A stretch of DNA of 64,000 nt from Deltaproteobacteria bacterium (GCA_029262315.1 JAJCZP010000221.1:2289-66288), one strand, 5' to 3'; positions 14,006-53,595 are shown, counted from the stretch's first letter. Translations and numbers: made by a program. Notes: generated from the letters alone by a model not told the origin.

Positions 14006-14035
14006 TTGACGCATCATCTCCCGGCCGCGCATAAT
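14006..14035 (+). promoter_or_regulatory. Sigma70-like promoter candidate for the giant secreted-protein gene
   Basis: TTGACG, an 18-nt spacer, then CATAAT, in a low-GC gap, about 90 nt upstream of the AAGGAG RBS and ATG at 14123. Confidence 0.3.
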
Positions 14036-14122
14036 CTGCCCCGTGCCGATTCTCCACTAGGGGTCCCACCACTGCGCGGAGCGCGCACAGATCGAGCTGA
14101 TCAGTTAAGGAGTACACGGGAG

Positions 14123-17100
14123 ATGTCGAATCCGCTGTCGCGGCAACGCTGGGTCGTCGGCGTACTTTTCACCGCATTCTACGTTGCTGTCGCTGCCCCC
14201 GCTGGCGCCGTGACGCGCGCGTGCGGACCCGACGCGATCGCCAATACGAACGACGTGCTGTGCGCGGCCCCAAGCGGCCCCTGCAATGGAGTCTCGGTGG
14301 TCGTCAGCACGGCCATCGAGATTCCCGACGGCGTGCCCTGCAACTTCGACCTTGGTGGCCGTGATCTGACCTTCGACCGCACGATTGAAGTGACCGGGAG
14401 ATTCGGCGCTCTGAACGGCGTGATTCGTGTGTTCAACGCCCAGAACATCACCGTCAGCGACACGGGAAAATTGAAGGCACAGGGCGACTTCGTCCAGCCA
14501 GCTGGCTTCATCACCGGCGGCGGCCTGATCTCGCTGGACGCCTCCGGTGATATCTTCCACGAAGGCGTGATGGACGTCACTGGCGATAGTGCCGGAACCA
14601 TCATCCTCGACGCCGCGGGCGAAGTGCAGATCCTCAACAACTCCGAGCTGACCGGCAACGGGCTGAGTTCGTTTCTCGACGAGGGCGAGCGCTTCGCGGA
14701 CGGCGGCACCCTCGATATCACCGCGGGCGCGGGCGACATCACGATCAACGGCGATATCTCCATGCGCGGCTCCAACCAGGCCACCGGAGGCACGCTCACC
14801 TTCCAGGCCGCCAAGAGCGTCTTCCTGAACAAAGCCATCGACATGTCGGGCGGCGGCGGCGACGGCGGTGCGCTCGAGGTAGAAGCGGGTGACCACATCA
14901 CCATCAGTAAAACGATCGATGGCGTCAGCCGCGCGGGAGCCGGCTTCGGCGGATCGGTGCTCCTATTCGCCGGTGAGGACGGTCTCGGCGGCGTGGTCCC
15001 CGGCGGCAACCTCGATGTCGACAGCGCGAGCATCAAGCTGCAGGGCAGCTCCACCGACGAGTTCGGAGGTGACGGCGGCGAAGTCGACATCGCGGCAGCA
15101 GGCAACGTCCGGTTCTTCGGCTCGGGTGTCTCCATTCGCGTCGACGCCGCGACCAACTGGGATGGCTCCGGGGGAACCGTCGCGATCGATACGGGAGACT
15201 CGAAACCGAGTACGATCGGCCCGACCGATGGCAACATCGAAATCGATGGCCTGATCTCCGCCCGGGGCGGCGACCTGGACAGCAGTGGTGGGGAGATCGA
15301 TCTCAGCGCTGGGGCCGATCTGATCATCACGGCGGACATCGACCTCAGCGCAAAGGATACCGGGGGCGATCTCACCGGCGATGCTGGCGGCGCGATCCTC
15401 CTCGACGGCGTGATCTCGGCCCCCGCGACCGATAGCGCGGGCGAGGGCGGCTTCATTGACCTGATTGCCGGCGTCGCGTCCGACGCGACGCTCACGGTGT
15501 CCAAGAATATCCTCGCGCCCGGCGGCGCGACGAGTAGCAGTGGACAGAACATCTCGCTGTCGGCATGCACACTCGTCGTCGATGACAACACCAGGGTGGA
15601 TGGCCAGGGCGGCGTCAGCCTCGGTGGCGCCGAGGGCGGCGCCGACATCGATCTCATCTCGCGCCGGCCCATGCAGCTGGGGTCCGACTCGCGATTTCTC
15701 GCGGGCCCGGGAGGATCGGTCGTTGCCACGTACCCTCCAGGACAAGATCCCGTGATCGGCTCCGGTGTCACCTTCGCCCCACCGCTCTTCACCAACATCA
15801 ATCCCGTGGGGGCCTATCCGAACTGCCCCGTCTGCGCTGATGGCATCCTGCAATCAGGCGAGGTCTGCGATCCCGGGCTCGACGCCTGCTGCAATCCGAC
15901 CTGTAACGGCTTCATCTGCCCCACGCCCACGGTCACGCCCATCCCCACAACGACCCCAACCACGACTGTCGGGGGTCCGACTGCCACCCCAACCGTGACG
16001 GCGACACCGACGACGACCGTCACCCCGACGACGACCAGCACACCGATCGCTACGGCGACCACGACACCGACGGCCACGACGACGGCGACGCCACTCGCGA
16101 CGGCTACGAGCACTGCGACGGCCACGGCGACGCCAATCGCGACGCCCACCGCGACGGCCACCATCACGGTGAACCCCACCGCCACCGCGACGCCCGTTCC
16201 CACCGGCACGCCCACGGCAACGGCGACGCCCGTCCCGACGAGCACGGCCACTCCCGGTGTGAGCACTCTCGATCACTACAAATGCTACAAATCCAAAACA
16301 GCCGCGGGCACCGAAGCGCTGGCGCAACTGGAAATCCTGCTGGCCGATGCGTTCGAGACCAAGCTCACCAAGATCCGGAAGACACGCGAGATCTGCACCG
16401 CCACCGATGTCGATGGCGAGGTCATCAACGACCCGACGGCACACTTGCAGTGCTTCACCGTCAAGGACGTCGCTGGCCAGGCGAACTTCCAACGCCGCGA
16501 CATCGAGGTCGAGAATCGTTTCGGTCCGCAGACCTTCACGGCGCGCAAGCTCCGGCGCATGTGCATGCCCGCCGTGCTCGACGCCGCGCCCTCGCTCCTG
16601 AACATCGACGCCATGAAGTGCTACACGGCGAAGACCGCCTCGGGCACGCCAAACTTCACGTCGCTAGAAGCCACGCTCACCGATCGGTACGAGTCGAAGC
16701 TGACGCGTATTCTCAAGGTGGAGAGTTTCTGCCAAGCCGTCGAGGTCGGCGGCCAGCCTACGCTCAACCCCGCGGCCGAGCTGCACTGCTACAAAATTCG
16801 TGATGCCGCGGGTCAGCCCAAATTCAACCGGCTCGAGGCGGGCGCGGAGAGTGGTTTGGGCGCGGAGGTCGTGAGCGTACAGAAGCCAACCGCGTTGTGT
16901 GTGCCCTCGACACGCGTGGCTCCTCCAGCGTGCGGCGATGGCACCGTCGATCCCGGCGAGCAATGCGACGACGGCAACACCGATCCGGGCGACGGCTGCG
17001 ATGATCTCTGCAGACTCGAGCAGTGTGGCGACGGCCAGCTGCAGCCCGGCGAAGGCTGCGATGATGGCGCCGCGAACGGCACCAACGATTGCTGCACGAC

Positions 17101-17809
17101 GATCTGCCAGCTGGTCGATCCCGACGGCGACGGCGTCTGCAGCCGCGATGATGCCTGCCCGGCCGACGCCGACAACGATAGCGACAGTGACGGATTCTGC
17201 GTTGGGACCTCGTTCCAGCCCCCGGCCATCGGCGGTGACGACCCGTGCTCACGCCCCGCGACACCGTGGATCAAGCCGAAGGCCACGTTCAGCAAACTCG
17301 ATCGCGTCGCCGGCCAGCACAAGTTCACGATCAAGGGCGAGTTCGTCGTACCGACGGGGGGCCTCGCGGTCGCGCCGCAGGCGCGCGGCGTCCATCTGCG
17401 CGTCGTCGACAACGCCGGCACGCTCATCATCGACGAACGCATTCCCGGCGGGTTCTTCTCGCAGGCCACAGGTGTGGGCTGGAAACTGGGCGGCAACCCG
17501 ACGAACAAGTGGACGTACATCGACAAAACGAGACCGCCGCTGCTCGCCGGCATCAACAAACTCCAGGTTCAGGATCGGTCGAACAAGCAACCGGGCCAGT
17601 TCAAGGTCTCGATCGCCGGCCGGCAAGGCGCCTATGCACTCGCGCCTGGCCAAGAGCCCATCACGATCGCAGTCGAGTTCAACGACACGGGCATCCCGCC
17701 AGGTGGCACGGTGGGCGTCGACCAATGCGCCGAGCTGACGTTCGATCTGTTGCCGATCCGTCCCGGGTGCGGCTTCAACGGGCGAGCCAACAAACTCGGC
17801 TGCAAGTAG
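14123..17809 (+). CDS. Giant secreted multidomain adhesin-like protein. Order of parts: beta-helix-like Gly-rich repeats, Pro/Thr linker, two HYxCY modules, two Myxococcus-type Cys-rich repeats, TSP3-like Ca-binding repeats, C-terminal domain.
   Basis: RBS AAGGAG then ATG 14123, with signal peptide [31 protein letters not shown]. Repeats are [27 protein letters not shown] and [24 protein letters not shown], plus [28 protein letters not shown]. 1228 aa. Confidence 0.85.
15921..16258 (+). repeat. Low-complexity coding repeat (ACN/CCN/GCN codons) encoding the Pro/Thr/Ala linker
   Basis: Encodes [114 protein letters not shown] inside the 14123-17809 CDS. Confidence 0.7.
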
Positions 17810-35520: not shown

Positions 35521-36861
35521 GTGGGCGGCGCGACGAAGTACGACGCCATCGTCATCGGCGGTGGGCCGGCGGGCGCGACACTCGCGACGAGGCTCGCACA
35601 GCAGGGTCGTCGCGCGCTCGTCGTGGAACGTGAGGACTTCCCTCGCTTTCACATCGGCGAATCGCTCCTGCCCTGCTCGATGCCTCTCCTCGACGCGCTC
35701 GGGGTGCCGCCCGACCTCCTCCGATCGAAGTTCCTACCCAAGCACGCCGCGGAGTTCGTCACGGGCGACGGCAGCCTCGTCCGCCGCTATCCGTTCAAAG
35801 ACGGCGTCGTGTCCGGGCCGAACTCGGCATTCGAAGTCGATCGGGACGAGTTCGACAGCATCCTCCTTCAGAACGCGGCCCGCGCCGGCGCGACCGTCCG
35901 CCACGCGACCAAGGTCGTAGACTTCGACGTGCGATCCGATGGTGTGCGGGTCGAGGCACGCGCCCGCGATGGGTCCACGCAAACCTTCCGCGCGGAGGTA
36001 CTGGTCGATGCCAGCGGTCACTCGAGCCTCGTCGCTCGTCGTTTTGGCCTGCGCGAGGTCGACCCGAACCTGAAGAACTTCGCGGTGTACTCGCACTATC
36101 GCGGCGCCACCCGCGCGACCGGCGATGCCGAGGGTGACATCAGCATCGTCCTTGCGCCCCGGGGCTGGTGGTGGATCATTCCGCTCAAGAACAATCGCAC
36201 GAGCCTCGGACTCGTCGCTCCCGTGGCGACGCTCGCGGGAGAGCGCGCCGACACGACCTACCTCGAGCGCCAAATTGCGCGCACGCCCTACCTGGCGGCG
36301 CGCGTTGCGAGCGCCGAACGGATCGAGCCCGTCCGTACCGTCTCGAACTTCTCCTATCGCAGCAGCAGGATGACGGGTGACCGCTGGCTCCTGGTCGGCG
36401 ATGCGGCGGCGTTCATCGATCCCGTATTCTCAACCGGAGTCTACGTCGGCATGCGCCAGGGGTTCTTGGCGGCGGAGGTCATCGATCGCGCACTCGCACG
36501 GCAGCGCTTCTCGCGGCGAGCATTTCGAGACTACGAGCGCTGGTCCAGGAGGGCTCTCGACGTCTATCGCAATTTCGCGACCGGTTTCTACACGCCAGAG
36601 TTCGCCGAGATGATGATGCACCCGAGCGATACGTTGCAACTACGCCAAGCCGTGACGTCACTTCTCGCCGGCTACGTGGTCGACCATTTCGGTGTCAACT
36701 GGCGGATCGCGCTGTTTCGGAGCCTCATCCGCGCGAACAAGTACTGGCGGCTGACCCCGCGCCTGCCCGGCCGTCGCGAGGCCGCGGAAGCCTGGCGCGC
36801 CGGTCACGGTGGCGCCTCGGCACCGACGCAACGCCGAGGCCAAGAAGGCGGGCCTACTTGA
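35521..36861 (+). CDS. FAD-dependent monooxygenase of the flavin-dependent halogenase type
   Basis: DAIVIGGGPAGA (GxGxxG), FPRFHIGESLLP, and GWWWIIPL matching the WxWxIP halogenase fingerprint. 446 aa, GTG start. Confidence 0.65.
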   Translation: MGGATKYDAIVIGGGPAGATLATRLAQQGRRALVVEREDFPRFHIGESLLPCSMPLLDALGVPPDLLRSKFLPKHAAEFVTGDGSLVRRYPFKDGVVSGPNSAFEVDRDEFDSILLQNAARAGATVRHATKVVDFDVRSDGVRVEARARDGSTQTFRAEVLVDASGHSSLVARRFGLREVDPNLKNFAVYSHYRGATRATGDAEGDISIVLAPRGWWWIIPLKNNRTSLGLVAPVATLAGERADTTYLERQIARTPYLAARVASAERIEPVRTVSNFSYRSSRMTGDRWLLVGDAAAFIDPVFSTGVYVGMRQGFLAAEVIDRALARQRFSRRAFRDYERWSRRALDVYRNFATGFYTPEFAEMMMHPSDTLQLRQAVTSLLAGYVVDHFGVNWRIALFRSLIRANKYWRLTPRLPGRREAAEAWRAGHGGASAPTQRRGQEGGPT

Positions 36862-42422: not shown

Positions 42423-43613
42423 ATGCCAGACACCGTTCCACAGCTAGCGCTCGTCCTCATCACCGGCCTCGGCACGGTGGTCTGGCTCGTGAACCTGCTG
42501 CTGATGGCTCAGTGCGTGCGCCATATCCCCTTGCTGAGTGATCTGCATCCTCCACCGCTCGGATCGTGGCCCAGGGTCAGCGTCGTCATTCCCGCCTGCA
42601 ACGAAGCACACACTGTCGAGGCGGCGCTCGCCTCCCATGTGGCGACGGACTATCCCAACATCGAACTACTGCCCGTGAACGATCGCTCGACCGACGGCAC
42701 GGGCGCGATCATCGATCGGCTTGCCGCGAAGGATCCCCGCATTCGGCCAGTGCACATCACCGAACTCCCCGAGGGATGGCTCGGCAAGGTCCACGCGCTG
42801 CACACTGGCGCCCGTCGGGCCTCCGGTGACTGGCTCCTCTTCGCCGACGCGGACACCCATGTCCGTCCCGATGCGCTCACCCGCATCATCGCCTGGTGCG
42901 AAGCCGAGAAGGTCGATCTCTTCAGCCCCATCTTTCGCCTGCGGGGCGGCAGCGGTGCGCTCGTCGATCTCGCGACCAGCACGTTCGCGCGACTGATGTT
43001 CATCGCCTCGCAACCGTGGCGCGTGTCGGACCCAAGAGCCAAGCAGGCCTTCGGGGCTGGCGCGTTCATTCTCGTACGACGCCGCGCGTTCGAACGCACG
43101 GAGGGATTCTCGTGGCTGCGCATGGAAGTCGCGGACGACATGGCCCTGGCCCTCTTGCTCAAAGGTTCGGGCGCCCGATTGCGCGTCGTCAACGCACGCG
43201 ACCACATCGAGTTGGCGTTGTACACGACACCCGATGAGGTCCGCCGCAGCACCGAGAAGAGCGGCTATGCCATCCTCGGCCACTATAGCCTCGCGAAGAC
43301 GCTCAGCATGGCGGCGCTGCTCCCTGCCCTGGAACTCGCTCCGTTCGCTGGCTTTGTACCGGTCGACGTCCCCTGGCTCCCGGCGCTCGGCGCGGTGGGT
43401 ATCGCCTTGATGCTGGCCTGCCTGGCCTGGTCGATGCGGTGGTTCGGCCGGCCGATGTGGACCGCGTTCGCCTATCCCATCGGGATGCTCTGGATGAGCT
43501 GGCTGAACGTGCGATCCGGCCTGATCGGCGCTCACCATCAGGGAATCCGCTGGCGAGATACCTTCTACCCCGCCGAGACACTGCGGGCCGGGATCCGCGT
43601 CCACTGGCCATGA
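42423..43613 (+). CDS. Family 2 glycosyltransferase, integral membrane (N- and C-terminal TM helices)
   Basis: VSVVIPACNEAHTV..., DRSTDGT, FADADTH (DxD). The C-terminal half is hydrophobic. Confidence 0.8.
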   Translation: MPDTVPQLALVLITGLGTVVWLVNLLLMAQCVRHIPLLSDLHPPPLGSWPRVSVVIPACNEAHTVEAALASHVATDYPNIELLPVNDRSTDGTGAIIDRLAAKDPRIRPVHITELPEGWLGKVHALHTGARRASGDWLLFADADTHVRPDALTRIIAWCEAEKVDLFSPIFRLRGGSGALVDLATSTFARLMFIASQPWRVSDPRAKQAFGAGAFILVRRRAFERTEGFSWLRMEVADDMALALLLKGSGARLRVVNARDHIELALYTTPDEVRRSTEKSGYAILGHYSLAKTLSMAALLPALELAPFAGFVPVDVPWLPALGAVGIALMLACLAWSMRWFGRPMWTAFAYPIGMLWMSWLNVRSGLIGAHHQGIRWRDTFYPAETLRAGIRVHWP

Positions 43614-43736
43614 GGCACCGCCGTGACGTCGACAGGCGGGGCTGAGGACACCCTGATCGGTCTCGCTCGTACGCCTGGCCGCCGCCATCACGCTGACCGT
43701 TGCAGCCGTGCGATTGGTTCGCTAGGCGTTCGGGGA

Positions 43737-45149
43737 GTGACGTCGCTTCGCGGATCATCGCGCTCGTGTCGCTGGCAGCGCGCGATCGTCGGCGTCGTCA
43801 TCGGCACGCTCCTGCACAGCACCACGCTTGCGGGCTGTATCCGCTACCGCGCGGCCCCGCTCGACACCGTTCCGTTCCAGGAGCGCGCCATCGTCCAAGA
43901 ACGTGACGGCCTTCGCGTGTCGGCGAGCGCGCTCGGGAGCGAAGAGGCGCACACTCTCTTCGGCGTGTCCTTGGCCAAGCTCGGGATCCAGCCCGTCTGG
44001 ATCAGGATCGCCAACGATACCGACGACGCCTACCTCTTCTTCCAGCAAACGGTCGATCCCGACTACTACGCGGCGGCGGAGGCCGCCTACAAGAGCCACT
44101 ACTCCGGCATCAAACGCGCGCTCGGACTGGGGCTGGCCGCTATCCTGCTGTGGCCCATCGTCCTCGTCGCTCCAATTCAACTTGTCAGCGCCCAGATCGC
44201 CAACCGGCGGATGGACGCTCTGTTCGCCTCACGCGCCATCGGAAACCACTACGTTTCGCCCGGGCACACGATCGAGGGTTTCGTGTTCACCCCGGTCGAT
44301 GAAGGCACCAAGAACGTTCCGGTCACCCTTCTCGGCCCCGAGGGGACACAGGCCTTCAGCCTCTTCGTGCAGGTCCCCGGCGGCCGAGCCGATCATATCA
44401 GCGTCGATTTCGAGGCGCTGCACGCGGGCGAATCCATCCGCGACCTGGACAACGGCACGGTGAGCGCGATCGCGAGCACCCTCCCCTGCTGCGCGACGAA
44501 CGCACGCGGCACACGGAACGGCGATCCGCTCAACGTCGTCATCGCCGGCACGTTCGAACAGGTGCTGAACGGGCTCACCCGCGCAGGCTGGGATGAAACG
44601 GATGCGCTGGACATCACCTCGAGCCTCCGCACGGCTGGCGCGTTCCTCTTCGCATCGCACTACCGATACGCACCGATCAGCAATCTCTTTCTGTACGAGC
44701 GCGCCCAGGACGTAGCGTTCCAGAAGGCGCGGGAAACGATTCACGAACGCAATCACATGCGCCTCTGGCTTTCACCGCTCCGACTGAACGGTCTACCCGT
44801 CTGGGTGGGACAAGTCAGTCGGGACATCGGCATCCGCTTCACGCCGCGGACCTGGACCCTGACCACGCACGCCATCGATCCCAACGTGGACGACGCACGC
44901 GAGGCCCTCGTCGGAGATCTCCTGCAAACAGGGCGGGTCGCCGCAGTGGGATACCTTGCGGGGAGCGAAGGCTCGACGCCCGAGGACCCCGCGCGCAATC
45001 TCACTGGCGACCGGTACCATACCGACGGCTACCTGGCGCTGACGATCCTCGCAGATCAGCCGACGGCACCTGAGATCCTCTACGAAGACGCGGGGAAAGA
45101 GGCCGAGATCGTGCCCCCTGTCGGCACCGCGCCTGAGACGGCGGAATAA
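43737..45149 (+). CDS. Lipoprotein with a possible LssY-like C-terminal domain
   Basis: GTG 43737 behind GGGGAG. Lipobox LHSTTLAGC. An internal TM (LGLGLAAILLWPIVLVAPIQLV). C-terminal ..NVVIAGTFEQVLNGLTRAGWDE..ERNHMRLW. The domain call is tentative. Confidence 0.55.
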   Translation: MTSLRGSSRSCRWQRAIVGVVIGTLLHSTTLAGCIRYRAAPLDTVPFQERAIVQERDGLRVSASALGSEEAHTLFGVSLAKLGIQPVWIRIANDTDDAYLFFQQTVDPDYYAAAEAAYKSHYSGIKRALGLGLAAILLWPIVLVAPIQLVSAQIANRRMDALFASRAIGNHYVSPGHTIEGFVFTPVDEGTKNVPVTLLGPEGTQAFSLFVQVPGGRADHISVDFEALHAGESIRDLDNGTVSAIASTLPCCATNARGTRNGDPLNVVIAGTFEQVLNGLTRAGWDETDALDITSSLRTAGAFLFASHYRYAPISNLFLYERAQDVAFQKARETIHERNHMRLWLSPLRLNGLPVWVGQVSRDIGIRFTPRTWTLTTHAIDPNVDDAREALVGDLLQTGRVAAVGYLAGSEGSTPEDPARNLTGDRYHTDGYLALTILADQPTAPEILYEDAGKEAEIVPPVGTAPETAE

Positions 45150-45174
45150 AGCGACCGCGTCGCGGTTCCGCGCG

Positions 45175-46965
45175 CTACCGCTCGGCGCTGGCGATGGTTT
45201 CCAGCGTCTCCCACCGAGCATAGAGGTCGGTGAGATCGGCCTCGACGGTCTCGAGACGCGCCGTGTCGGCCGCGATCTCGGGACCAGGACGCTTGTAGAA
45301 ATCCGCCCCTGCCATGGCGGCCGCTAGCGCGCTCTTTTCCCGCTCGAGCGCTTCGATCCGTGCTGGCAGCTCCTCGAGTTCGCGTCGCTCCTTGAACGTC
45401 AATCGACGCGGTCCCTGGCGCACGGGCCGCGGACGGGGCTGCTTCTTGACCGCGGCCGGTGCCAGCGCCGCCGTTGGTCGCTGCCGTACCCAGTCGTCAA
45501 AGCCGCCCACGTACTCGCGGACACGACCCTCCCCCTCGAACACGAGCGTCGACGTGACGACGTTGTTGATGAAGGCCCGATCGTGGCTGACGACGAGCAA
45601 GGTACCCGAGAACCCCGCAAGCCAGGCCTCGAGCATTTCGAGCGTCTCGACATCGAGATCGTTGGTCGGCTCGTCGAGCACCAGAAGATTGCACGGTCGG
45701 GCGAGGAGGCGCGCGAGCTGTAGCCGATTGCGCTCGCCTCCGGACAACTGCTGGGTGGAACCCCGGATCTGCTCCCGCGTGAAGAGAAAGTCCTCGAGGT
45801 AGCCCACAATATTCCGAGGGCGTCCGTCGATCGTCACCGTATCCCCGGCGTCACACACGTTCTCCCGCACGCTCTTCGTATCGTCCAGCACGGCGTGCAG
45901 CTGATCGAAACGCGCGACCTCGAGGCTAGTACCGTGATGCACGTGGCCACTGCTCGCGGGAAGCTCGCCCAACAGCAAGCGAAGCAGAGTGGTTTTTCCG
46001 CAGCCGTTCGGTCCGATGATGCCGATCCGGTCGCCCCGCACGATGGTGGTCGTCAACTGGTCCACGACCGGGCGCTCATCAAACGCGTGGCAGAGCGCCT
46101 CCGTCCGCACGACGATTCGTCCACTACGTTCCGCGTCCTGGAGACGGCCCTGGACCGTGCCGGCGACGTCGCGACGGGCACCGCGAGTCTCACGCATGGC
46201 CTCCAATGCGCGCACACGTCCTTCATTGCGCGTCCGCCGCGCGCGGATACCGCGGCGCACCCAGACCTCCTCGGCCGCGAGCTTCTTGTCGAAAAGCGCC
46301 TGCTCACGCGCCTCGGCCTCGAGCAGCGCCTCCCTCCGCGCCAAATAGGTCGTGTAGTCGCACGGGTAGCTGCGCAGAGCCCCACGATCGAGGTCGAGAA
46401 TCCGGGTCGCCAGTCGACGCAGGAATTCCCGATCGTGCGTGACGAAGACCAGTGCCCCTCTGTACTGCAGCAGCATGTCCTGCAGGTCGAAAATGGCCTC
46501 GATGTCGAGGTGGTTCGTCGGCTCGTCGAGGAGCAGCAGATCTGGCTCGACGATGAGCGCGCGTGCGAGGAGGACGCGGCGTTTGATCCCCGCCGAGAGA
46601 TCCGCAACCGATGCCTCGCGCTCCAGACCGAGCCGGGAAACCGTCTGCGCGATCCGCGTCTCGATCTCACGCGGGGTGAGGACACCTCCGTCCAACGCAT
46701 GTCCGAGCTGCGCGCCCACGGTACCGTCCAGCGCACGCGGCACCTCTTGAGGCAACTCGGCGACCGATAGCCCTTGGCGCCGGCTGACCGTCCCCGTATC
46801 CGGCTCGAGCGCCCCCGATAGAATACGCAAGAGCGTCGACTTCCCCGCGCCGTTCCTCCCAACGAGTCCGATGCGCTCCCCGCGCTCGATCTGGAGATCG
46901 ACCTTGTCGAGCAGGGGAGTTCCTTCGAGCGCGTAGCTCGCAGCGGTCAGTCCGAGTTCGGCCAT
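45175..46965 (-). CDS. ABC-F family ATPase (tandem ABC domains, Uup/EttA-like; no membrane domain)
   Basis: Two Walker A sites, GLVGRNGAGKST and IGIIGPNGCGKTT. Two signature motifs, LSAGIKRR and LSGGERNR. A C-terminal coiled-coil domain. Start taken at MAELGL (46965). Confidence 0.85.
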   Translation of the reverse strand: MAELGLTAASYALEGTPLLDKVDLQIERGERIGLVGRNGAGKSTLLRILSGALEPDTGTVSRRQGLSVAELPQEVPRALDGTVGAQLGHALDGGVLTPREIETRIAQTVSRLGLEREASVADLSAGIKRRVLLARALIVEPDLLLLDEPTNHLDIEAIFDLQDMLLQYRGALVFVTHDREFLRRLATRILDLDRGALRSYPCDYTTYLARREALLEAEAREQALFDKKLAAEEVWVRRGIRARRTRNEGRVRALEAMRETRGARRDVAGTVQGRLQDAERSGRIVVRTEALCHAFDERPVVDQLTTTIVRGDRIGIIGPNGCGKTTLLRLLLGELPASSGHVHHGTSLEVARFDQLHAVLDDTKSVRENVCDAGDTVTIDGRPRNIVGYLEDFLFTREQIRGSTQQLSGGERNRLQLARLLARPCNLLVLDEPTNDLDVETLEMLEAWLAGFSGTLLVVSHDRAFINNVVTSTLVFEGEGRVREYVGGFDDWVRQRPTAALAPAAVKKQPRPRPVRQGPRRLTFKERRELEELPARIEALEREKSALAAAMAGADFYKRPGPEIAADTARLETVEADLTDLYARWETLETIASAER

Positions 46966-46988: not shown

Positions 46989-48260
46989 TTACGACCCGAG
47001 CGACGCGACCTCGCCAATCTCGGAGATCCGCGGACCCTCGACCGCGGCTTCGCCAGCGCCGCTCCCGAGACTCGACTCCATGGAGGCAAGCACTCGATCG
47101 AGGTCGGCACCGAGCCGTTGCTGCTGCCGGCGGTGCCGGAGCACCTCGCCGACGGCGAGCCTCGGCGCCAGCGCGAGGAGACGAGCGAGCTTTCGCGGGG
47201 TCCGAAACGTCGCCCAACTCCGGCGCGTGTTCACGAGTACCAGGCCGAGCACCTCGATAAGCACCGATGCGAGACCGTTCCCACGCCCCTCGATCGTGAA
47301 GACCTCGTCGGCGCGCACTTCGGACAGGGGGGTATCGAGCATGTCCGACACGAGCGCTGCGAAGCCCGGCGCCCGCGCATCCGCCGGGGGCCGATAGCGC
47401 ACACACACGCGATCATAACGACCGAGATGGGCGTCGCTACCGCCCCACGTCACGATGTCGTCGGCGATGTAGGGCGCCGCGCCTCCCGCTCCGTTCATCA
47501 GCCGGCGCGCCAACCGCCCTACGACACCATCGCCCCGCTCACCTTCCGCGAGCGAACGCGCCAGCCCGGGTCGCGAACGAACACGATTGTGCACCTCGAG
47601 GTAGCGCGCGAGCCGCCGCGCGCTATCACTCCCAAAGCCACCATTCACGACCTCGATGAATCGACAGCCTGCGATCGCCGTCAGCGTCGTCTCGAGGTCG
47701 AGCGTATGCCCGTCGAGCGGATGCGAGAGCCCGTGCGCAATGCGCCGCGCTCGACAATACGCCAACACGCGGTGCAGCTCCGGACGCGGAGCGCCTACTG
47801 GACGACACGCGTCCTGCATCTCCGCCAGCCATGCCGCCGAGATACCGTAGTGCGCCCCCCCGCGCTCGCGCATCCGATCGGTGCCACCGTACAGCAGCAC
47901 CTCGGGCGCGGACGCGTACCGCCCGCTGCCGGGCGGTGTCTCGACGACGGTTTGCAGCTCTCCGCCGATGGCGATCCGGTCATTCTCGTTCGCAAGGTCG
48001 ACGAGTTCCGGATCGAAAGCGCGGGTCGTCTCGTTCAGATGATCGGTCACGAAGACGAGATCGGCGACACCGCCAGGCGCGACCAGACAGCCGATTTCCT
48101 CCGGCGTGGTCCTGGACTCGGTCCAATCGAAGTCCTCGGCGGACTCACCCGTCACGCGTGCGACCGCGGCCCGAATGAAGCCATCCATCGGACTCGCGCG
48201 ATTGTTGGATTGCCGCGTGTGACAGTGCGTAATGACGGCGAGTCGGTCGTCGCTGCGCAT
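46989..48260 (-). CDS. Hypothetical protein, possibly a PHP-like metal-dependent phosphoesterase
   Basis: N-terminal LAVITHCHTRQS (HxH). Acidic protein-like composition, versus an Arg-rich opposite-strand ORF. The ATG overlaps the upstream radical-SAM stop region (a 3-nt gap). Confidence 0.5.
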   Translation of the reverse strand: MRSDDRLAVITHCHTRQSNNRASPMDGFIRAAVARVTGESAEDFDWTESRTTPEEIGCLVAPGGVADLVFVTDHLNETTRAFDPELVDLANENDRIAIGGELQTVVETPPGSGRYASAPEVLLYGGTDRMRERGGAHYGISAAWLAEMQDACRPVGAPRPELHRVLAYCRARRIAHGLSHPLDGHTLDLETTLTAIAGCRFIEVVNGGFGSDSARRLARYLEVHNRVRSRPGLARSLAEGERGDGVVGRLARRLMNGAGGAAPYIADDIVTWGGSDAHLGRYDRVCVRYRPPADARAPGFAALVSDMLDTPLSEVRADEVFTIEGRGNGLASVLIEVLGLVLVNTRRSWATFRTPRKLARLLALAPRLAVGEVLRHRRQQQRLGADLDRVLASMESSLGSGAGEAAVEGPRISEIGEVASLGS

Positions 48261-48262
48261 CA

Positions 48263-50107
48263 CTACGACGCGGCGGCCTCGGTGCCGCACGAGCTGCATC
48301 CGCCACTACCGCACCCACCCGCGCCCGTCGCCGTCGGCAGTTCGATCGGACGATCGCCGGCGTGAATCGGATGGCGACCCATCGTCTGGTACCACTCCTT
48401 CACGGTCGCGACCTTGTGCATGTTCTCGAGAATCTGCCGCCAGCCGACTCCGGTATTGTAGGCGCAGAAGGAGATCTCACCCATCTGCGTCCCGTACGGA
48501 ATGATGCAGCGCTCGGTGCGCCGAAAGTCGTAGTTGAAGAGATCCTGAAACCACATGCCGGCGACGAACAACGCACGCCACTCGAACGTACCCTCGTCGT
48601 CTTCCCCAGCAAAGTCACGTGCCCCCGTCTGGCTGATGAGCTGTCGCAGCAGGGAGGTGAAGGAAACCGGCGAAGCCGCGGCGTTGTAGTTCCGCAGCAA
48701 CGCCAGCCCGATTTGCGCCATCGTGATAGTGTTTCCACCGGCGGCATCCGCGATCTTCCGGAAGTCGCTCAGGAGCTGCTCGAGATCCACGATCGCGGAG
48801 AGCGGGACGGCCTGCTTCGTCTTCTTGTGCACGAAGAGCACCGTGCCGATGCCACAGTTGGGATGGCAGCCGCACTTGAGACTGCCCCAGTCCGCGTTCG
48901 CGCCGAGCATCAGATCGACAACGTCCGAAAAGGGCCCCATCGCCGACAGCGGAAACCAATCTCGCTGCGGCTCGGTCATGCCGGTTTGCGTACGAATATC
49001 GTGAGCCAGGTGCGAGAGGGTGTACCGGCGCGCGTGCCGCGTCTCGTCGTCGATGTCGTCGTCGCGCCCCGTGAACGAGACGGGCTGAAACGACACGACC
49101 GTCACCTTGTCGGCGTTCTGGATGGCGAAATCGACGATGGCCCCGACCTGATCATCGTTGATGCCTTTGACGATGGTGGGCACGAGCACGACGTCGATAT
49201 CGGCGGCGGCCAAATTCTCGATCGCCTGCTGCTTTACGTCGAACAGGTTCGACACCTTCCGGTGGGCGTGGGCGGCGTTGTCGGTCCCGTCAAACTGCAA
49301 ATATGCGATTCGAAGACCGGCCTCCTTCGCCTCCATGGCAAAGCCCGGGTCTTCAGCGAACCGTACACCGTTGGTCGAGCACTGCACCGCGAAGTAGCCG
49401 ACCTCCCGCGCGTACCGCACGGCGTCGAGAAAGATCGGCGAGAGGGTCGGCTCGCCCCCGGAGAAGTTGATCGACATCTGCCGCTTCGGCTTCACTTGCA
49501 CGGCGTCGTCGAGGATCTTCTTGACCTCGGCCAACTCGAGCTCGTGCACGTAGCCCACCTGATTGGCGTCCATGAAGCAGGCGTCGCACATCATGTTGCA
49601 GCGGTTCGTGAGATCGATCACGAGCACCGCTCCACGGCCGTACTTGATGGTGGACTTGCCGTGATTGCGGAGCTTCGTGATCGGCGTGGTGAAGTCACTC
49701 CCGGGATGCAGGCTTTCGATCCGCGCCAAGAATGACGGGTCGATCGCCATGACGTCGGTGAAATCGCCGTGCATTGGGCAGGTCTTGTCCATGACGATCT
49801 TGCCATCGCGCTCGAGAATCGTGGCGCGGATCTCTCCGGGAGTTTCGTCGAGCAGGGTCTTCCAATGGCGTTTCCCCGAAAGAATGGCGGCGCGTGCCTC
49901 CTTGATGCACACCGGACACAGCGAGTCGGTCTCACGCGGCCACCCAAGCACCGGTCGATTCTGCTGCGAGCCCTTCTGGAGGGGGGCCGGCGCCCAGGGG
50001 GGCTGAAACCCCTGATGCCCGGCGGCGTCGACCACTGTCCGCGTCACGTGCCACGCGATGGACGCCGCCTGGGACAACGCGCCGTCGATCAGTCGGGTAA
50101 CTCCCAT
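48263..50107 (-). CDS. Radical SAM enzyme with an N-terminal rubredoxin-like knuckle and C-terminal Cys-rich auxiliary-cluster region (class-D rSAM / MJ0619-Tes-like?)
   Basis: LCPVC...KTCPMHG N-terminal metal site. Radical SAM CNMMCDAC (CxxxCxxC) with FSGGEPT. Later KCGCHPNCG and a ..CIIPYG..SFCAYN.. Cys cluster. Gly/Cys tail GAGGCGSGGCSSCG. 614 aa. Confidence 0.8.
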   Translation of the reverse strand: MGVTRLIDGALSQAASIAWHVTRTVVDAAGHQGFQPPWAPAPLQKGSQQNRPVLGWPRETDSLCPVCIKEARAAILSGKRHWKTLLDETPGEIRATILERDGKIVMDKTCPMHGDFTDVMAIDPSFLARIESLHPGSDFTTPITKLRNHGKSTIKYGRGAVLVIDLTNRCNMMCDACFMDANQVGYVHELELAEVKKILDDAVQVKPKRQMSINFSGGEPTLSPIFLDAVRYAREVGYFAVQCSTNGVRFAEDPGFAMEAKEAGLRIAYLQFDGTDNAAHAHRKVSNLFDVKQQAIENLAAADIDVVLVPTIVKGINDDQVGAIVDFAIQNADKVTVVSFQPVSFTGRDDDIDDETRHARRYTLSHLAHDIRTQTGMTEPQRDWFPLSAMGPFSDVVDLMLGANADWGSLKCGCHPNCGIGTVLFVHKKTKQAVPLSAIVDLEQLLSDFRKIADAAGGNTITMAQIGLALLRNYNAAASPVSFTSLLRQLISQTGARDFAGEDDEGTFEWRALFVAGMWFQDLFNYDFRRTERCIIPYGTQMGEISFCAYNTGVGWRQILENMHKVATVKEWYQTMGRHPIHAGDRPIELPTATGAGGCGSGGCSSCGTEAAAS

Positions 50108-50247
50108 ATATCCCTCACTCCCTCCGCCACGTCGCCGACGACGTGCCTCGTGTTGGGTTACCGTCGCTATGCGTTTCTGGAAACCGGGTCAACCGACCTC
50201 CCACCCGAGCGCAACGTCCCCGGAAGAAGTGGGTTAGAACGAGAATC

Positions 50248-50820
50248 ATGACGAAACGGGCGTGGATAGTCGTTCTCGCACTCCTACTGCTGCCGGGAAT
50301 CCCGGGCCTGGCCGACGCCAAAGACGGCCGTGGCCACAAGGGCGGACATGGCTACAGCGGAGGGCGTGGTCACAAAGGCGGACACGGCTACCGGGGGGCC
50401 CGCAGTCACGCAGGCAAACACGGCTACCGGGGGGGGCGCCGCGCTGGCCGGCATAACTACAATCGGGGTCACGGCTACAACGGCCGGCACGGCCACAAGA
50501 GTGGACACCGCCGCCACGGATACGGCTACGGGCATAGCTACCGGCGAGGATACCGCGGAGGTTGGTGGGGATACTGGGGCTACCCCGCGTATGGATACGG
50601 CTACCCGTACGTCTACCCCTACGTTTACCCCTACGCGTCGGAAACCAGGGTGATCATCGAAGAGCAGCCGGTCTACATAGAACGACCGCAAAGCGCGGCG
50701 CGGGCCGCCTCTCCGCCCCAGCAGGGCTACTGGCACTACTGCGCGAGCCTCGGCGGTTACTACCCCGAGATGCCGAACTGCCCCGAGGACTGGATCAAGG
50801 TCCCGCCGAGGCCCGAGTAG
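50248..50820 (+). CDS. Secreted low-complexity Gly/His/Tyr-rich repeat protein
   Basis: Signal peptide MTKRAWIVVLALLLLPGIPGLADA. Tandem GRGHKGGHGYSG/GRGHKGGHGYRG repeats, a YGYGYPYVYPYVYPY stretch, and C-terminal ..YWHYCASLGGYYPEMPNCPEDW. Confidence 0.6.
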   Translation: MTKRAWIVVLALLLLPGIPGLADAKDGRGHKGGHGYSGGRGHKGGHGYRGARSHAGKHGYRGGRRAGRHNYNRGHGYNGRHGHKSGHRRHGYGYGHSYRRGYRGGWWGYWGYPAYGYGYPYVYPYVYPYASETRVIIEEQPVYIERPQSAARAASPPQQGYWHYCASLGGYYPEMPNCPEDWIKVPPRPE

Positions 50821-50824
50821 CCCT

Positions 50825-51166
50825 ATGATGCCAACACGCTCGCTTCTCCTCGCCGTCGGGAGCGCACTCGCGCTCTCGGCTTGTGCGCACTACCCGGTCG
50901 GGCCAAGCCTGATGGTCCTCCCTGGCACCGGCAAAGACTTCTCGCGTTTTCAGGACGACGACGCGATGTGCCGCGACTACGCCAGCAGTACGCTCCAAAG
51001 CCGGTACGACAACGCGTACCTGCAATGCATGTACGCCAACGGCAACCAGATCCCGGTGCCTCCCGGATCGTTCGCGGCGTCCAGCACCTACACGTCGCAA
51101 GCCACGCCGCACCGTCCACCGCCTCCCCCACCGGCAGGCCCCGCCCCGGCTCCACCTCCGTACTAG
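50825..51166 (+). CDS. Small lipoprotein with a Pro-rich C-terminus
   Basis: MMPTRSLLLAVGSALALSAC lipobox, 4 nt after the upstream stop. Ends with a PPPPPPAGPAPAPPPY tail. Confidence 0.55.
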   Translation: MMPTRSLLLAVGSALALSACAHYPVGPSLMVLPGTGKDFSRFQDDDAMCRDYASSTLQSRYDNAYLQCMYANGNQIPVPPGSFAASSTYTSQATPHRPPPPPPAGPAPAPPPY

Positions 51167-51229: not shown

Positions 51230-53470
51230 TCAGGGCGTCGGCGTGGGAACCGACGAGATATCGGTCGAGCCACTGCACGACACTGGATACGGCGCGAACG
51301 GCTGAACGCCGCTCCGATCACTGCAATCCGCCGCAAATTCGGCGACGCAGCCCAGACAGAACGCGGCGTCGGCGAGCGTCACGACCGGCCCGAAACATCC
51401 GGTGTCCCCGTGGCTGGCGTTTGCCGGCACCATCACGTCCGGGCAGGTTGACGCGAAGCCGATCTCGCCGGGCGTGAGGTCGTCACCCCCGCCACTACCA
51501 CCGAGCACCGGAATACCAGGATCCACGGCCGCAACCACCTGATCGCACGCGGCGTCAGCTCCTCCACAAATGCGACAGATCTTCCCGATGCGCCGCAGGT
51601 CGGCGCGCCGAATGGACGCCTGCGTACTCAACGTCGGGCACGGCTCGGCATGCTTCCCCTTGAACCGATCGTGCCAGCACTTGCCGAGCGCTTTCATCCT
51701 GGCGAGCAAATATCTCACCGTCTCCTTGCCCATCGTCTTTTGACACTTCGCAAGCGATTTACTCGTCGCGGCGCCGCCGACCTCGATGAAGTCGTCGTAG
51801 AAGAGCGCGATGGCACGATCGGTTGCCGCGTCGTGGATACACTCGATACACGCCGAGGCCTCTCGGCAATCGGTCAGGTCGTTCGTGCAACCCGCGCCAT
51901 CGACATCGGGACACACACTGGGGAATCCGAGGTCGCTCTGCATATCGAGATTGTCGTCAACGTCGCCGCAGACGCCGTTCAGGCCGCCGCACTCCCGATC
52001 GATCAAACGTTCGAGCCGCGCGCGAGCCCTGTCTATCTTCGCTGCGGTCCGGCGATCGGCGAGACAATACGCCAACCGGGCACCCGGTCCGGGGTCCGGC
52101 CCAAACTTGCCCTTCAGCAGCCGCTCTTCGCACGTCTTCAATGCCGAAACTTTGGCCTTGGCGAACGCACCACCGGCCCGGGAAACCGCTCGCCGACAGC
52201 GTGTCGGGTCCGCGGGAATCGGGGTCGGGGAAGCGGTCGGAGCGGGTGGGATCGTCGTCGTCGCGAGCGGGGACGGAAGAGGCGTGCTCACCACGGTCGT
52301 CGTCGGCACGGGCGTACTACTTGCCGTCCCGACTACGGTCGGCGTCGCACTTATCGTCAACGCCGCGGTCGATGTCGGCAATGCAGAAGGCGTCGACGTG
52401 GCCGTCATCGCGACCGTCGGCGTCGGCAGTGTGGCGGTTAGCGTCGGCGTCGACAGTGCGGCAGTTGGTGTCAGCGTCGGCAGTGCGGCGGGCGGTGTCG
52501 GCGTCGACAGTGCGAAAGTTGGTGTCGGCGTCGCGACCGCCGCGCAGACAACGGAGCTGGTACTTCCCGACGAGGGTGCGACCACGACGATGTCACCCTG
52601 CGGGTTGCCACTGCCACTATTGTTGCCACCCGCAACATCCGCAACGGAGTCGAACGGTGCGCACCCGTCGACCTGGAGCCCCACGTTCAGGTTGTCGTCC
52701 GCGGTGTTCCCTCCCAACGTAAGGCCATGCGAATTCGACAGCAAGAAACCGTGCCGATAATTCCCGCTGGCAACGCAGCCATGAACGCGCGCTCCATCGC
52801 TATGATCGATTCCGATGCCGTCGGAACCGCGATTGTCGATCGCATGATTGCCGATCAGTGTCGCACAGGGCGAACCGAGCACACGAATCCCACCATGCGC
52901 CGCGTCGGTGACGAAATTCTGTGCGAGCACGATCCCGGGGCTGCTGTCGATGAAGATCCCTTGCTCGACACGGGTATGGGCGATCGTGCATTCCTCCACG
53001 CGGTTGTCCTGGCCGAGATACACCCGGATGCCCAGGGCGTTGTCCTCGATGTAGAGTCCCGTCAGGAGAGCGCTTGTCACACCGTTCAACCGAACGCCGT
53101 TGTAGGCGCCGACGATGTGGACGTTCCGGATCGTCACACCGTGGATCCCATCCACCCGAATGCCATCATTGCTGACATGAGGGGTACCGTGAATGACCGG
53201 AGGATCGGCCGGATCCATGGCCTCGATCGTCAAACCGTCCTGCGCTCCATTCACGCGCACCGCTTCGAAGTAGACTCCGGGCGCCACCTGGATCGTGTCA
53301 CCGGGCCCCGCCGCGTCGACGGCGTCCTGAATCGTGGGCTGGTCGCCTGGCACGGCGATCACCGCGCTTGACACCACGGCCACAGCGGGAGGGAGCAGGA
53401 CCAGGCACAACGCACCGAGCAGGGCCAGGCACAAGTCAGCGAGCGGACACCACACTGTAGATTCGCGCAT
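51230..53470 (-). CDS. Secreted right-handed parallel beta-helix protein (NosD/pectate-lyase-like repeats), a Pro/Thr linker, and a C-terminal Cys-rich helical domain
   Basis: Start MRESTVWCPLADLCLALLGALCLVLL at 53470. Repeats ..GIRVLGSPCATLIGNHAIDNRGSDGIGIDHSDGARVHGCVASGN.. C-terminal modules CRRAVSRAGGAFAKAKVSALKTC / CQKTMGKETVRYLLARMKALGKC. Confidence 0.8.
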   Translation of the reverse strand: MRESTVWCPLADLCLALLGALCLVLLPPAVAVVSSAVIAVPGDQPTIQDAVDAAGPGDTIQVAPGVYFEAVRVNGAQDGLTIEAMDPADPPVIHGTPHVSNDGIRVDGIHGVTIRNVHIVGAYNGVRLNGVTSALLTGLYIEDNALGIRVYLGQDNRVEECTIAHTRVEQGIFIDSSPGIVLAQNFVTDAAHGGIRVLGSPCATLIGNHAIDNRGSDGIGIDHSDGARVHGCVASGNYRHGFLLSNSHGLTLGGNTADDNLNVGLQVDGCAPFDSVADVAGGNNSGSGNPQGDIVVVAPSSGSTSSVVCAAVATPTPTFALSTPTPPAALPTLTPTAALSTPTLTATLPTPTVAMTATSTPSALPTSTAALTISATPTVVGTASSTPVPTTTVVSTPLPSPLATTTIPPAPTASPTPIPADPTRCRRAVSRAGGAFAKAKVSALKTCEERLLKGKFGPDPGPGARLAYCLADRRTAAKIDRARARLERLIDRECGGLNGVCGDVDDNLDMQSDLGFPSVCPDVDGAGCTNDLTDCREASACIECIHDAATDRAIALFYDDFIEVGGAATSKSLAKCQKTMGKETVRYLLARMKALGKCWHDRFKGKHAEPCPTLSTQASIRRADLRRIGKICRICGGADAACDQVVAAVDPGIPVLGGSGGGDDLTPGEIGFASTCPDVMVPANASHGDTGCFGPVVTLADAAFCLGCVAEFAADCSDRSGVQPFAPYPVSCSGSTDISSVPTPTP
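52210..52550 (-). repeat. Low-complexity coding repeat encoding the Pro/Thr/Ala/Ser linker of the beta-helix protein
   Basis: Runs of GTCGGCGTCG/CGGCAGTG-type units on the + strand, encoding TPTPTFALSTPTPPAALPTLTPTAALSTPTLTATLPTPT... on the minus strand. Confidence 0.65.
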
Positions 53471-53595
53471 TTCGAGGGCTCGGCCTTTGGGGGGCCAATC
53501 TGGCCCGTTTCTTAGCACAACCGTGCGACGAGGAGGCCCTGCACGGAGCGGAGCCCGCAGACCGCATAGCGTCGTCCCCGAAGGCGGCGAAGCAC

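Follow-up and report, generated by a model that had tools for sequence, protein, structure and literature searches.

The archaeal tetraether lipid synthase (Tes), also called GDGT-MAS (GDGT, glycerol dialkyl glycerol tetraether), is an enzyme of the radical S-adenosylmethionine (SAM) type that was once annotated as HMPTM, a radical SAM methylase of class D; it is represented by MJ0619 and MA_1486, by the PDB entries 7TOL and 7TOM, and by the family models NF045702 and IPR034474. GDGT-MAS holds four metallocofactors, one of which is a rubredoxin-type iron bound by C9x2C12x20C33x2H36 (Lloyd et al., PMC9433317). The second is an N-terminal [4Fe-4S] cluster at the protein surface, ligated by C73, C77, C80 and a histidine, and the third is the radical SAM cluster (PMC9433317). 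The C-terminal [4Fe-4S] cluster has a labile Met439, with Tyr459 nearby, and its sulfide has been proposed to trap the first lipid radical (PMC9433317). The active site of GDGT-MAS was also seen to bind ester phospholipids of E. coli (PMC9433317), and bacterial lipids are therefore plausible ligands. Here we describe a bacterial relative of this enzyme, together with the gene that follows it, in a stretch of 64,000 nt from a Deltaproteobacteria bacterium (GCA_029262315.1, JAJCZP010000221.1:2289-66288). We refer to the whole stretch as the window and count positions from its first nucleotide; the radical SAM protein is called rSAM, and the product of the downstream gene, which has a predicted PHP fold, is called the partner. 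The clade-wide loss of one metallocofactor site in rSAM and its relatives, the features that these proteins have added, and the conserved pairing with a rare PHP-fold protein appear to be undescribed so far.

Bacterial Tes homologues as such were known previously (PMC8941075, PMC9433317, PMC11868695). Zeng et al. reported 456 of them and proposed a role in the synthesis of branched GDGTs (brGDGTs) (PMC8941075), lipids that are widely used as proxies of palaeotemperature and pH and whose bacterial sources and biosynthesis are known only in part (PMC8941075, PMC11868695, PMC13023045). The catalogued homologues come from Acidobacteria (Ca. Koribacter, Ca. Solibacter), Planctomycetes, Chloroflexota and "various Proteobacteria"; they belong to the same family as the window rSAM, and published proposals connect them with lipids of the brGDGT or iso-diabolic-acid kind. 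A survey of 2025 regarded their function as unconfirmed, and our literature search found no direct enzymatic test of a bacterial Tes homologue. According to a 2026 paper, Chen et al. 2025 linked a Tes homologue to the iso-diabolic tetraesters of Ca. Koribacter, at the level of the organism. The tes genes of acidobacteria and planctomycetes have been reported to cluster with gms, whereas the rSAM gene of the window adjoins a PHP-like gene instead; furthermore, identity to MA_1486 is 40-42% for the best homologues from acidobacteria, whereas the identity of the window clade to archaeal Tes is about 33%. The preliminary description of this DNA had called the pairing with a PHP-like gene undescribed, and indeed the literature that we searched contained no paper that links a PHP domain with tetraether synthase. 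The other described enzyme of this kind is Mss of Thermotoga and Thermoanaerobacter, a radical SAM enzyme for which the same cluster-assisted tail-to-tail coupling has been proposed and which was shown by experiment to do the coupling in Thermotoga (Sahonero-Canavesi et al.). Mss has been described as only remotely related to Tes and has so far been found in anaerobes only; the window rSAM stands plainly on the Tes side.

The gene for rSAM and the ribosome-binding region in front of it are as follows.
48263..50107, minus strand: Tes/GDGT-MAS-family radical SAM gene, 614 aa (open reading frame, Pfam, NCBIfam, 7tol match, structure model)
50111..50125, minus strand: Shine-Dalgarno-like purine-rich stretch GGAGGGAGTGAGGGA, 4-18 nt 5' of the rSAM ATG (direct reading)

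The preliminary description had reported a 614-aa radical SAM protein with a series of cysteine motifs and had suggested, as a possibility, the Tes/GDGT-MAS family. The reading frame and every listed motif are present, and the suggested family is the right one: rSAM is a bacterial member of the Tes/GDGT-MAS family. Pfam recognizes PF23545 (the N-terminal zinc ribbon of HMPTM/MJ0619) at residues 57-120, as well as PF04055 (Radical_SAM, E 2e-18), and the top NCBIfam model is NF045702 (Tes), which scores 341.2 bits over profile positions 2-484 of 486. The model for the TrsS radical SAM (seleno)protein, NF045646, reaches 229 bits in the core region 92-377 only, short of its cut-off of 490, and the models for SPASM/twitch peptide maturases, NirJ/Ahb and MoaA give at most 77 bits, confined to the radical SAM core. 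The sole strong sequence match in the PDB is 7tol, the GDGT-MAS from M. jannaschii, which aligns with query residues 92-572 (E 6e-71), and SkfB and MoaA match at about 1e-4 only. An AlphaFold model of rSAM, built from 63 bacterial and archaeal sequences (pLDDT 88, pTM 0.89), was compared with known structures by Foldseek. It fits 7tol and 7tom with a TM score of 0.87-0.89 (normalised to the target) and an rmsd of 3.1-4.0 Å, the values for 7tol being E 1e-38, TM 0.89 and rmsd 3.1 Å, and the superposition extends to the C-terminal domain, which forms the pockets for lipid. The next fold match is MoaA, with a TM score of 0.53 for the radical SAM core only. Thus, the profile and PDB searches and the structure comparison, which had been named as checks on the assignment, both lead to Tes and not to an unrelated radical SAM subfamily.

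A separate concern had been that the N-terminal metal site might lie upstream of the true start of the protein. A Shine-Dalgarno-like run (GGAGGGAG/GAGGGA) precedes the ATG at 50107, the homologues align from residue 1, and the shortest public call of a homologue (locus L004, start MNRPQLGWPRETD) still includes CPxC. The N-terminal knuckle is for these reasons placed inside the protein.

To compare the cofactor ligands, we aligned the window rSAM and 120 bacterial relatives with full-length MJ0619 and 119 archaeal Tes sequences. The sites discussed are listed from the N-terminus.
49940..50107, minus strand: N-terminal extension, residues 1-56 (alignments, model secondary structure)
49748..49939, minus strand: rubredoxin-like Cys3His knuckle, C64, C67, C110 and H113 (PF23545, alignment)
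49628..49678, minus strand: place of the N-terminal auxiliary [4Fe-4S] cluster, lost here, with TKLRNHGKSTIKYGRGA in place of NGCPYDCGLCPNH (alignment)
49577..49600, minus strand: radical SAM CX3CX2C motif, CNMMCDAC, C170/C174/C177 (Pfam, alignment)
48854..48874, minus strand: CGCHPNC motif, C412/C414/C418 (alignments)
48464..48556, minus strand: rest of the catalytic C-terminal cluster site, M518/C534/Y538/C548 (alignment)
48284..48325, minus strand: Cys-rich C-terminal tail GAGGCGSGGCSSCG, C599/C604/C607 (alignment, model)

The rubredoxin-like site that had been proposed for the N-terminus aligns column for column with that of GDGT-MAS. C64 and C67 (of CPVC) and C110 and H113 (of C-P-M-H-G) correspond to C9, C12, C33 and H36 of MJ0619, and the four residues are invariant in all 120 bacterial relatives; among the 119 archaeal sequences, C9/C12 are present in 113, H36 in 118 and C33 in every one. 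The bacterial knuckle carries a 22-aa insertion relative to MJ0619, the spacer being 42 residues rather than 20. The three cysteines of the radical SAM motif (C170, C174, C177) are invariant in both sets. The same is true of the residues of the catalytic C-terminal cluster: C418 corresponds to C338 of MJ0619, a ligand of that cluster, and M518, C534, Y538 and C548 correspond to Met439, C455, Tyr459 and C470, respectively.

The N-terminal auxiliary cluster is where the two sets part. The columns of C73, C77 and C80, which are cysteine in 119 of 119 archaeal sequences, are gap, gap and leucine in the window rSAM and in 120 of 120 bacterial relatives, and only the histidine (H149) is retained among the ligands of this cluster. 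Because these ligands are lost while those of the radical SAM and C-terminal clusters are kept, rSAM should, as judged from its ligands, bind one mononuclear iron and only two [4Fe-4S] clusters in place of the three of GDGT-MAS. Two statements of the preliminary description need revision here. It had counted at least two further cysteine clusters, namely KCGCHPNCG (with C412, C414 and C418) and CIIPYG...SFCAYN (with C534 and C548), but C418, C534 and C548 would, by homology, jointly ligate a single auxiliary cluster; it had also expected multiple auxiliary clusters, and this clade keeps the C-terminal one only.

In full-length homology, architecture, Cys3His site, CX3CX2C motif, C-terminal cluster ligands, Met and Tyr, the window rSAM resembles archaeal Tes. 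It differs in the missing N-terminal cluster cysteines and in several additions, as well as in its bacterial host and its PHP-like neighbour. The 56-aa extension, not found in archaeal Tes, has a long helix predicted at residues 2-29 and a conserved WAPAPLQK...LGWPRETD; besides this extension and the knuckle insertion, C412 and C414 are additional cysteines that are invariant in the bacterial clade only. At the other end, the bacterial clade has about 45 extra residues relative to archaeal Tes. The Cys-rich tail that ends the window protein occurs only in the 8 closest of the 120 homologues and is modelled as disordered, with pLDDT below 50 from residue 592.

Homologues of rSAM number in the thousands (E from 0 to 1e-268), and the features described here are not a chance pattern. 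The best 120 are 64-95% identical to the window protein, and their named sources are Polyangia, Labilithrix, Pendulispora albinea, "Myxococcales" and "Deltaproteobacteria"; the homologue of Pendulispora albinea is 66% identical and those of Labilithrix metagenome-assembled genomes (MAGs) are 67-69% identical. NCBI labels the close relatives "radical SAM protein", and certain JGI records label them "tetraether lipid synthase". The window rSAM itself also has a public record, on an NCBI contig of 68.5 kb. Binatia and related Myxococcota are largely aerobic bacteria of soil and sediment. Remote relatives of rSAM (25-31% identity, H1-H7) were seen on megaplasmids of Mycolicibacterium vanbaalenii and of haloarchaea, which are not known to make GDGTs. 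In the plasmid collection, rSAM relatives were found only at this level of identity, and no homologue of the partner was found.

The gene downstream of rSAM and the features of its product are given next.
48261..48262, minus strand: 2-nt spacer from the rSAM TAG to the partner ATG (direct reading)
46989..48260, minus strand: divergent PHP-fold, phosphoesterase-like gene, 423 aa (model fold, family alignments)
48219..48227, minus strand: PHP motif I, H12-C-H14 (THxH wherever the call or the translation of a homologue extends that far)
48039..48044, minus strand: PHP motif II, D73-H74, VTDH (invariant in the family alignment; aligned by hhalign with ITDH of RNase AM)
47427..47435, minus strand: last PHP motif, D276-A-H278, GGSDAH (invariant; compare GSDFH of RNase AM)
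47061..47273, minus strand: basic region of helices at the C-terminus, residues 330-400 (helices at 330-347 and 355-400 in the model)

The junction of the two genes reads ...GCG TCG TAG tg ATG CGC AGC..., with the rSAM stop codon at 48263-48265 and the partner ATG at 48260. The gap is thus 2 nt and not 3 nt, as had been stated, and it suggests that the two genes are translationally coupled. In the scan for open reading frames, the downstream frame (46989-48299, minus strand) overlaps the end of the rSAM frame. We counted the loci that carry a partner homologue of at least 46% identity on a contig with upstream sequence (the window, L001, L002/L010, L004, L007, L008, L009, L018 and L019), and in 9 of 9 the gene immediately upstream, on the same strand, is that of rSAM. 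The spacing from the rSAM stop to the partner start is 2 nt in the window and L002, 5 nt in L009, 10 nt in L008 and 11 nt in L004; it is a 4-nt overlap or a 26-nt gap in L001, depending on the choice of start, and about 210-230 nt in L007 and L019. Five further pairs are suggested by matching of the two hit lists. The named carriers are MAGs of "Candidatus Binatia bacterium" and "delta proteobacterium", and the genes that flank the pair are unlike in every locus. The source of the window would, by these names, be an uncultured, Binatia-like bacterium. The Myxococcota homologues of rSAM at L005 (Pendulispora) and L006 have no PHP-like neighbour, and we therefore regard the partner as a lineage-specific accessory. 

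Two ways of connecting the partner with the peculiarities of rSAM were considered and rejected. The partner could compensate for the lost N-terminal cluster, but the cluster is absent from 120 of 120 relatives and only about a dozen have the partner. The Cys-rich tail could be required for the partner, but the tail is present in only 8 of 120 homologues, and the pair at L007 lacks it.

The public gene call for a protein identical to the partner (P0121) is 399 aa long and starts with MDGF, 24 codons late, and thus omits THCH/HxH; PHP motif I falls 5' of its start. About half of the database homologues bear the same shortened call. In other homologues the call includes the extension (...ITHCHS.QSNNRASP...), and tblastn reaches query residues 1-2 at nearly every locus. 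Because the extension is conserved among the homologues, we take the 423-aa reading from 48260 as correct. The HxH noted earlier for this frame is therefore present and conserved, although the public call begins after it.

The family of the partner is very small. Searches yielded 33 homologues among 5.8 billion clusters, 40 cluster representatives among 1.84 billion in a profile search, and only 3 loci in 185,579 species genomes. With E values of up to 10 admitted, the 27 family members gave no match to a Pfam or NCBIfam model, and neither a single-sequence nor a profile search found a sequence match in the PDB. The AlphaFold model is a confident one (pLDDT 84.8, pTM 0.87). Its five top PDB fold matches by Foldseek are all PHP-domain proteins (probability 0.63-0.97), namely BAD_1165 (3e0f, 3o0f), RNase AM of V. 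cholerae (9etk), the pAp phosphatase Cv1693 (2yb1) and the PHP domain of DnaE1, so that the earlier suggestion of a PHP-like neighbour is borne out at the level of the fold. In an alignment that includes members down to 26-35% identity, the invariant or nearly invariant residues are THxH, TDH, E101, H180-P-x-D, E203-x-x-NGG, D276-A-H278 and R284. The order of the motifs, HxH / TDH / GxE / HP / E / SDAH, parallels that of E. coli RNase AM (DLHSHT..SDG / ITDHD / GVEIST / LAHP / EV / GSDFH), and by this reading of motifs H12, H14, H74, E101, H180, D276 and H278 are conserved. On its modelled structure, we accept the partner as having a PHP fold, though a divergent one, in which about seven of the canonical set of nine metal ligands are kept, and it would be catalytically active. 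It shares its best folds and motif order with the PHP phosphoesterases (PF02811; TrpH/RNase AM, BAD_1165, Cv1693) and differs from them in its large insertions, in a basic helical C-terminal extension of about 90 residues, in matching no sequence model, and in having a radical SAM enzyme of lipid type as its genomic neighbour. Residues 330-400 contain 12 K/R and 5 D/E, and these helices are possibly a module that binds the membrane surface or a protein partner; no transmembrane segment is predicted in either rSAM or the partner.

More distant members of the partner family (about 30-36% identity) are unlinked to rSAM, and their contexts are mixed. At L011 (382-2177), the PHP-like relative overlaps the stop of PgpA (phosphatidylglycerophosphatase A) and lies downstream of a GtrA-like gene. 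At L015 (649-5542), it is preceded by an HpnN-like RND lipid transporter, as well as by a PHP protein of the canonical kind, and followed by a PhnW-like aminotransferase. Others adjoin TatD and ThiF, or PhoH-PIN and an XerD-like gene, and some have no informative neighbour.

What might the pair do? Every residue linked to coupling (the equivalents of C338/C455/C470, Met439 and Tyr459) is invariant, which speaks for a role of rSAM in coupling. Our tentative interpretation, which we would place slightly short of even, is that the pair couples lipid tails, through rSAM, and processes a head-group phosphate, through the partner. The cofactors of rSAM would, by homology, be a mononuclear iron of rubredoxin-like type, the [4Fe-4S] cluster that cleaves SAM and, near the C-terminus, a second [4Fe-4S] cluster with a labile Met and a neighbouring Tyr. 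In the scheme for GDGT-MAS, the sulfide of the C-terminal cluster would capture the first tail radical, and a second tail radical would then form the Csp3-Csp3 bond. rSAM may in the same way join bacterial glycerophospholipids, with acyl or alkyl chains, tail to tail and so yield a membrane-spanning (diabolic-acid or brGDGT-type) or a macrocyclic lipid. The partner, translationally coupled to rSAM, might hydrolyse a head-group phosphoester of the substrate or of the product, for example a phosphate of the phosphatidylglycerophosphate or phosphatidic acid type, or one of the two head groups of a bolalipid. Because most rSAM homologues lack it, the partner would be dispensable for the core reaction. 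rSAM is thus a candidate for a role in membrane-spanning lipids.

A number of observations weigh against this interpretation, and several of those that concern rSAM would also fit a clade that had kept the fold and the radical chemistry of Tes for a different job, such as acting on another hydrophobic metabolite, making an intramolecular cross-link or forming a C-S bond. If this is true, then the resemblance to Tes says little about membrane-spanning lipids. The score of rSAM lies under the NCBI equivalog cut-off of NF045702, which is 450 bits, its identity to archaeal Tes is 30-36%, and one of the four metallocofactors of GDGT-MAS is missing, while two invariant cysteines beside the ligand of the C-terminal cluster, the 56-aa extension and the 22-aa insertion have been gained. 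Remote members of the family occur in Mycolicibacterium and in haloarchaea, the latter not being known to make GDGTs. Lloyd et al. point to bacterial homologues whose hosts are not known as producers of biphytanyl chains (PMC9433317), and Sahonero-Canavesi et al. detected no Tes homologue in most bacterial producers of membrane-spanning lipids and found one in only 3 of 14 iso-diabolic-acid-producing acidobacteria. Our literature search found no report of membrane-spanning lipids in Binatia or from Myxococcota cultures. Neither group is known as a producer of such lipids, and, in this clade, tail coupling is deduced from homology. Nevertheless, the equivalents of the three C-terminal cluster cysteines, Met439 and Tyr459 are invariant, the entire architecture fits 7tol, including the lipid-pocket domain, and no neighbouring gene points to another substrate. 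We consider a different job for the rSAM clade unlikely, if still a serious competitor to lipid-tail coupling.

The assignment of the partner to head-group chemistry meets objections of its own. No PHP model (PF02811 or NCBIfam) detects any partner sequence. The Foldseek scores are modest (E 0.01-0.05, TM 0.24-0.36), and the PHP assignment comes from a predicted structure. An hhalign comparison with E. coli RNase AM aligns only TDH...GxE (motifs II and III) with a probability of 23%, and a comparison of the partner profile with a neighbouring canonical PHP protein gives a single motif at 2% probability. By the reading of motifs, the canonical set of nine metal ligands apparently has two substitutions, at one His and at the Asp of motif I. 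Moreover, most rSAM homologues, for example those in Myxococcota, have no partner, and most distant members of the partner family have no lipid-gene neighbours. One could envision that the partner is a nuclease or nucleotide phosphatase, like RNase AM or Cv1693, or a non-catalytic protein that docks to or stabilises rSAM. The nearest folds (RNase AM, Cv1693 and polymerase PHP domains), the substituted ligands, the distant members beside TatD/ThiF or PhoH-PIN/XerD-like genes, and the translation-related ABC-F gene that comes next in the window would all be in keeping with this. However, the ABC-F neighbour is not conserved, other distant members lie beside PgpA and an HpnN-like lipid transporter, and the subfamily of at least 46% identity is always tightly coupled to a homologue of a lipid enzyme; the invariance of seven metal-ligand positions in members down to 26% identity argues for catalysis. 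A nuclease-like or merely structural partner therefore seems to us improbable. It is more improbable by far that the adjacency has no functional meaning and was simply inherited among closely related carriers. The carriers do appear to be one lineage (Binatia and MAGs named "delta proteobacterium"), and the partner family is tiny, but identity has fallen to 65-76% for rSAM and 46-58% for the partner, and the pair has been kept in 9 of 9 loci, mostly at 2-11 nt, with all of the flanking genes different. Returning to lipid-tail coupling with head-group processing, a stronger version would be a dedicated two-enzyme module in which a Tes-like tail fusion is followed by the removal or remodelling of one phosphate head group by a PHP-fold lipid phosphatase, with Binatia/Myxococcota as unrecognised sources of brGDGTs or tetraesters. 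We regard this version as doubtful, well below the general one; if it is true, the route is distinct from Mss/Ger and from the acidobacterial tes-gms clusters.

The Tes-like clade of Myxococcota and Binatia is large and keeps the catalytic cluster, the Met and the Tyr in spite of the lost N-terminal auxiliary cluster. If its enzymes are active, then the N-terminal cluster is dispensable for the coupling chemistry. Conversely, if the clade makes no membrane-spanning lipids, counts of Tes at loose thresholds in metagenomic surveys over-call brGDGT producers. Cultured carriers exist (the Pendulispora albinea homologue is 66% identical), and the lipid question is therefore experimentally approachable. 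The PHP-fold partner, being rare, unannotated and genetically tied to rSAM in one lineage, is a candidate accessory step that lies outside current models of bacterial tetraether/tetraester biosynthesis.

Downstream of the pair, the minus strand carries one further gene before a terminator-like site.
45175..46965, minus strand: Uup-like ABC-F ATPase gene (NF050005 Uup, 698 bits)
45151..45166, minus strand: terminator-like hairpin with a T-rich tail, right after the ABC-F stop (consensus scan)

The ABC-F gene begins 23 nt past the partner stop and is probably co-transcribed with the pair in the window. The hairpin is the only intergenic terminator-like site downstream of the rSAM start on this strand in the consensus scan; two other minus-strand consensus sites sit within the rSAM coding sequence. 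No sigma-70-like promoter was found by a consensus scan. ABC-F was considered as a third member of the system and rejected, as it adjoins the pair elsewhere only in the near-identical L018. Between L018 (Ga0315338_1000307) and the window, the identity is 96.6% for rSAM, 90% for ABC-F and 82% for the PHP-like protein; the partner is evolving much faster than the rSAM that it accompanies.

The preliminary description had drawn attention to a PLD/cardiolipin-synthase-like gene and to acyl-CoA genes as a lipid context. These are at least 14 kb away and absent around the pair elsewhere, and so they add nothing. Closer to the pair (2-5 kb, opposite strand) are two genes of lipid or envelope flavour at 42423-45149, which are not conserved near the pair elsewhere: 42423-43613 (plus strand) encodes an HpnB-like/CruG-like family-2 glycosyltransferase (165 bits, the cut-off being 379) and is followed by a gene for an LssY_C-domain protein at 43623-45149 (plus strand). 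Further away, the flavoprotein encoded at 35521-36861 (plus strand) scores best as a CmlS-like FADH2-dependent halogenase (223 bits) and falls just below the cut-off of the geranylgeranyl-reductase family (152.2 against 158.8).

Throughout the window the G+C content is about 65%, and its 64 kb contain no tRNA or Rfam features. A 1267-aa open reading frame at 14006-17809 (plus strand) has a Cys-rich DUF4215 repeat as its sole match. Divergent from rSAM, the gene at 50248-50820 (plus strand) encodes a signal-peptide protein with Gly/His/Tyr/Arg repeats (GHKGGHGY..., YGYPYVYPYVYPY), which has no Pfam match and is not conserved beside the pair elsewhere. It is followed at 50825-51166 (plus strand) by a small lipoprotein-like open reading frame (113 aa), which is rich in Pro at its C-terminus and matches no Pfam model. 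At 51230-53518 (minus strand) lies a gene for a NosD/right-handed beta-helix protein, which has a long linker rich in Thr and Pro and, at its C-terminus, a region rich in Cys. Two other loci, L001 (19207-19947) and L004 (19331-21176), likewise have NosD/beta-helix genes no more than 10 kb from the pair, a loose and unexplained association.

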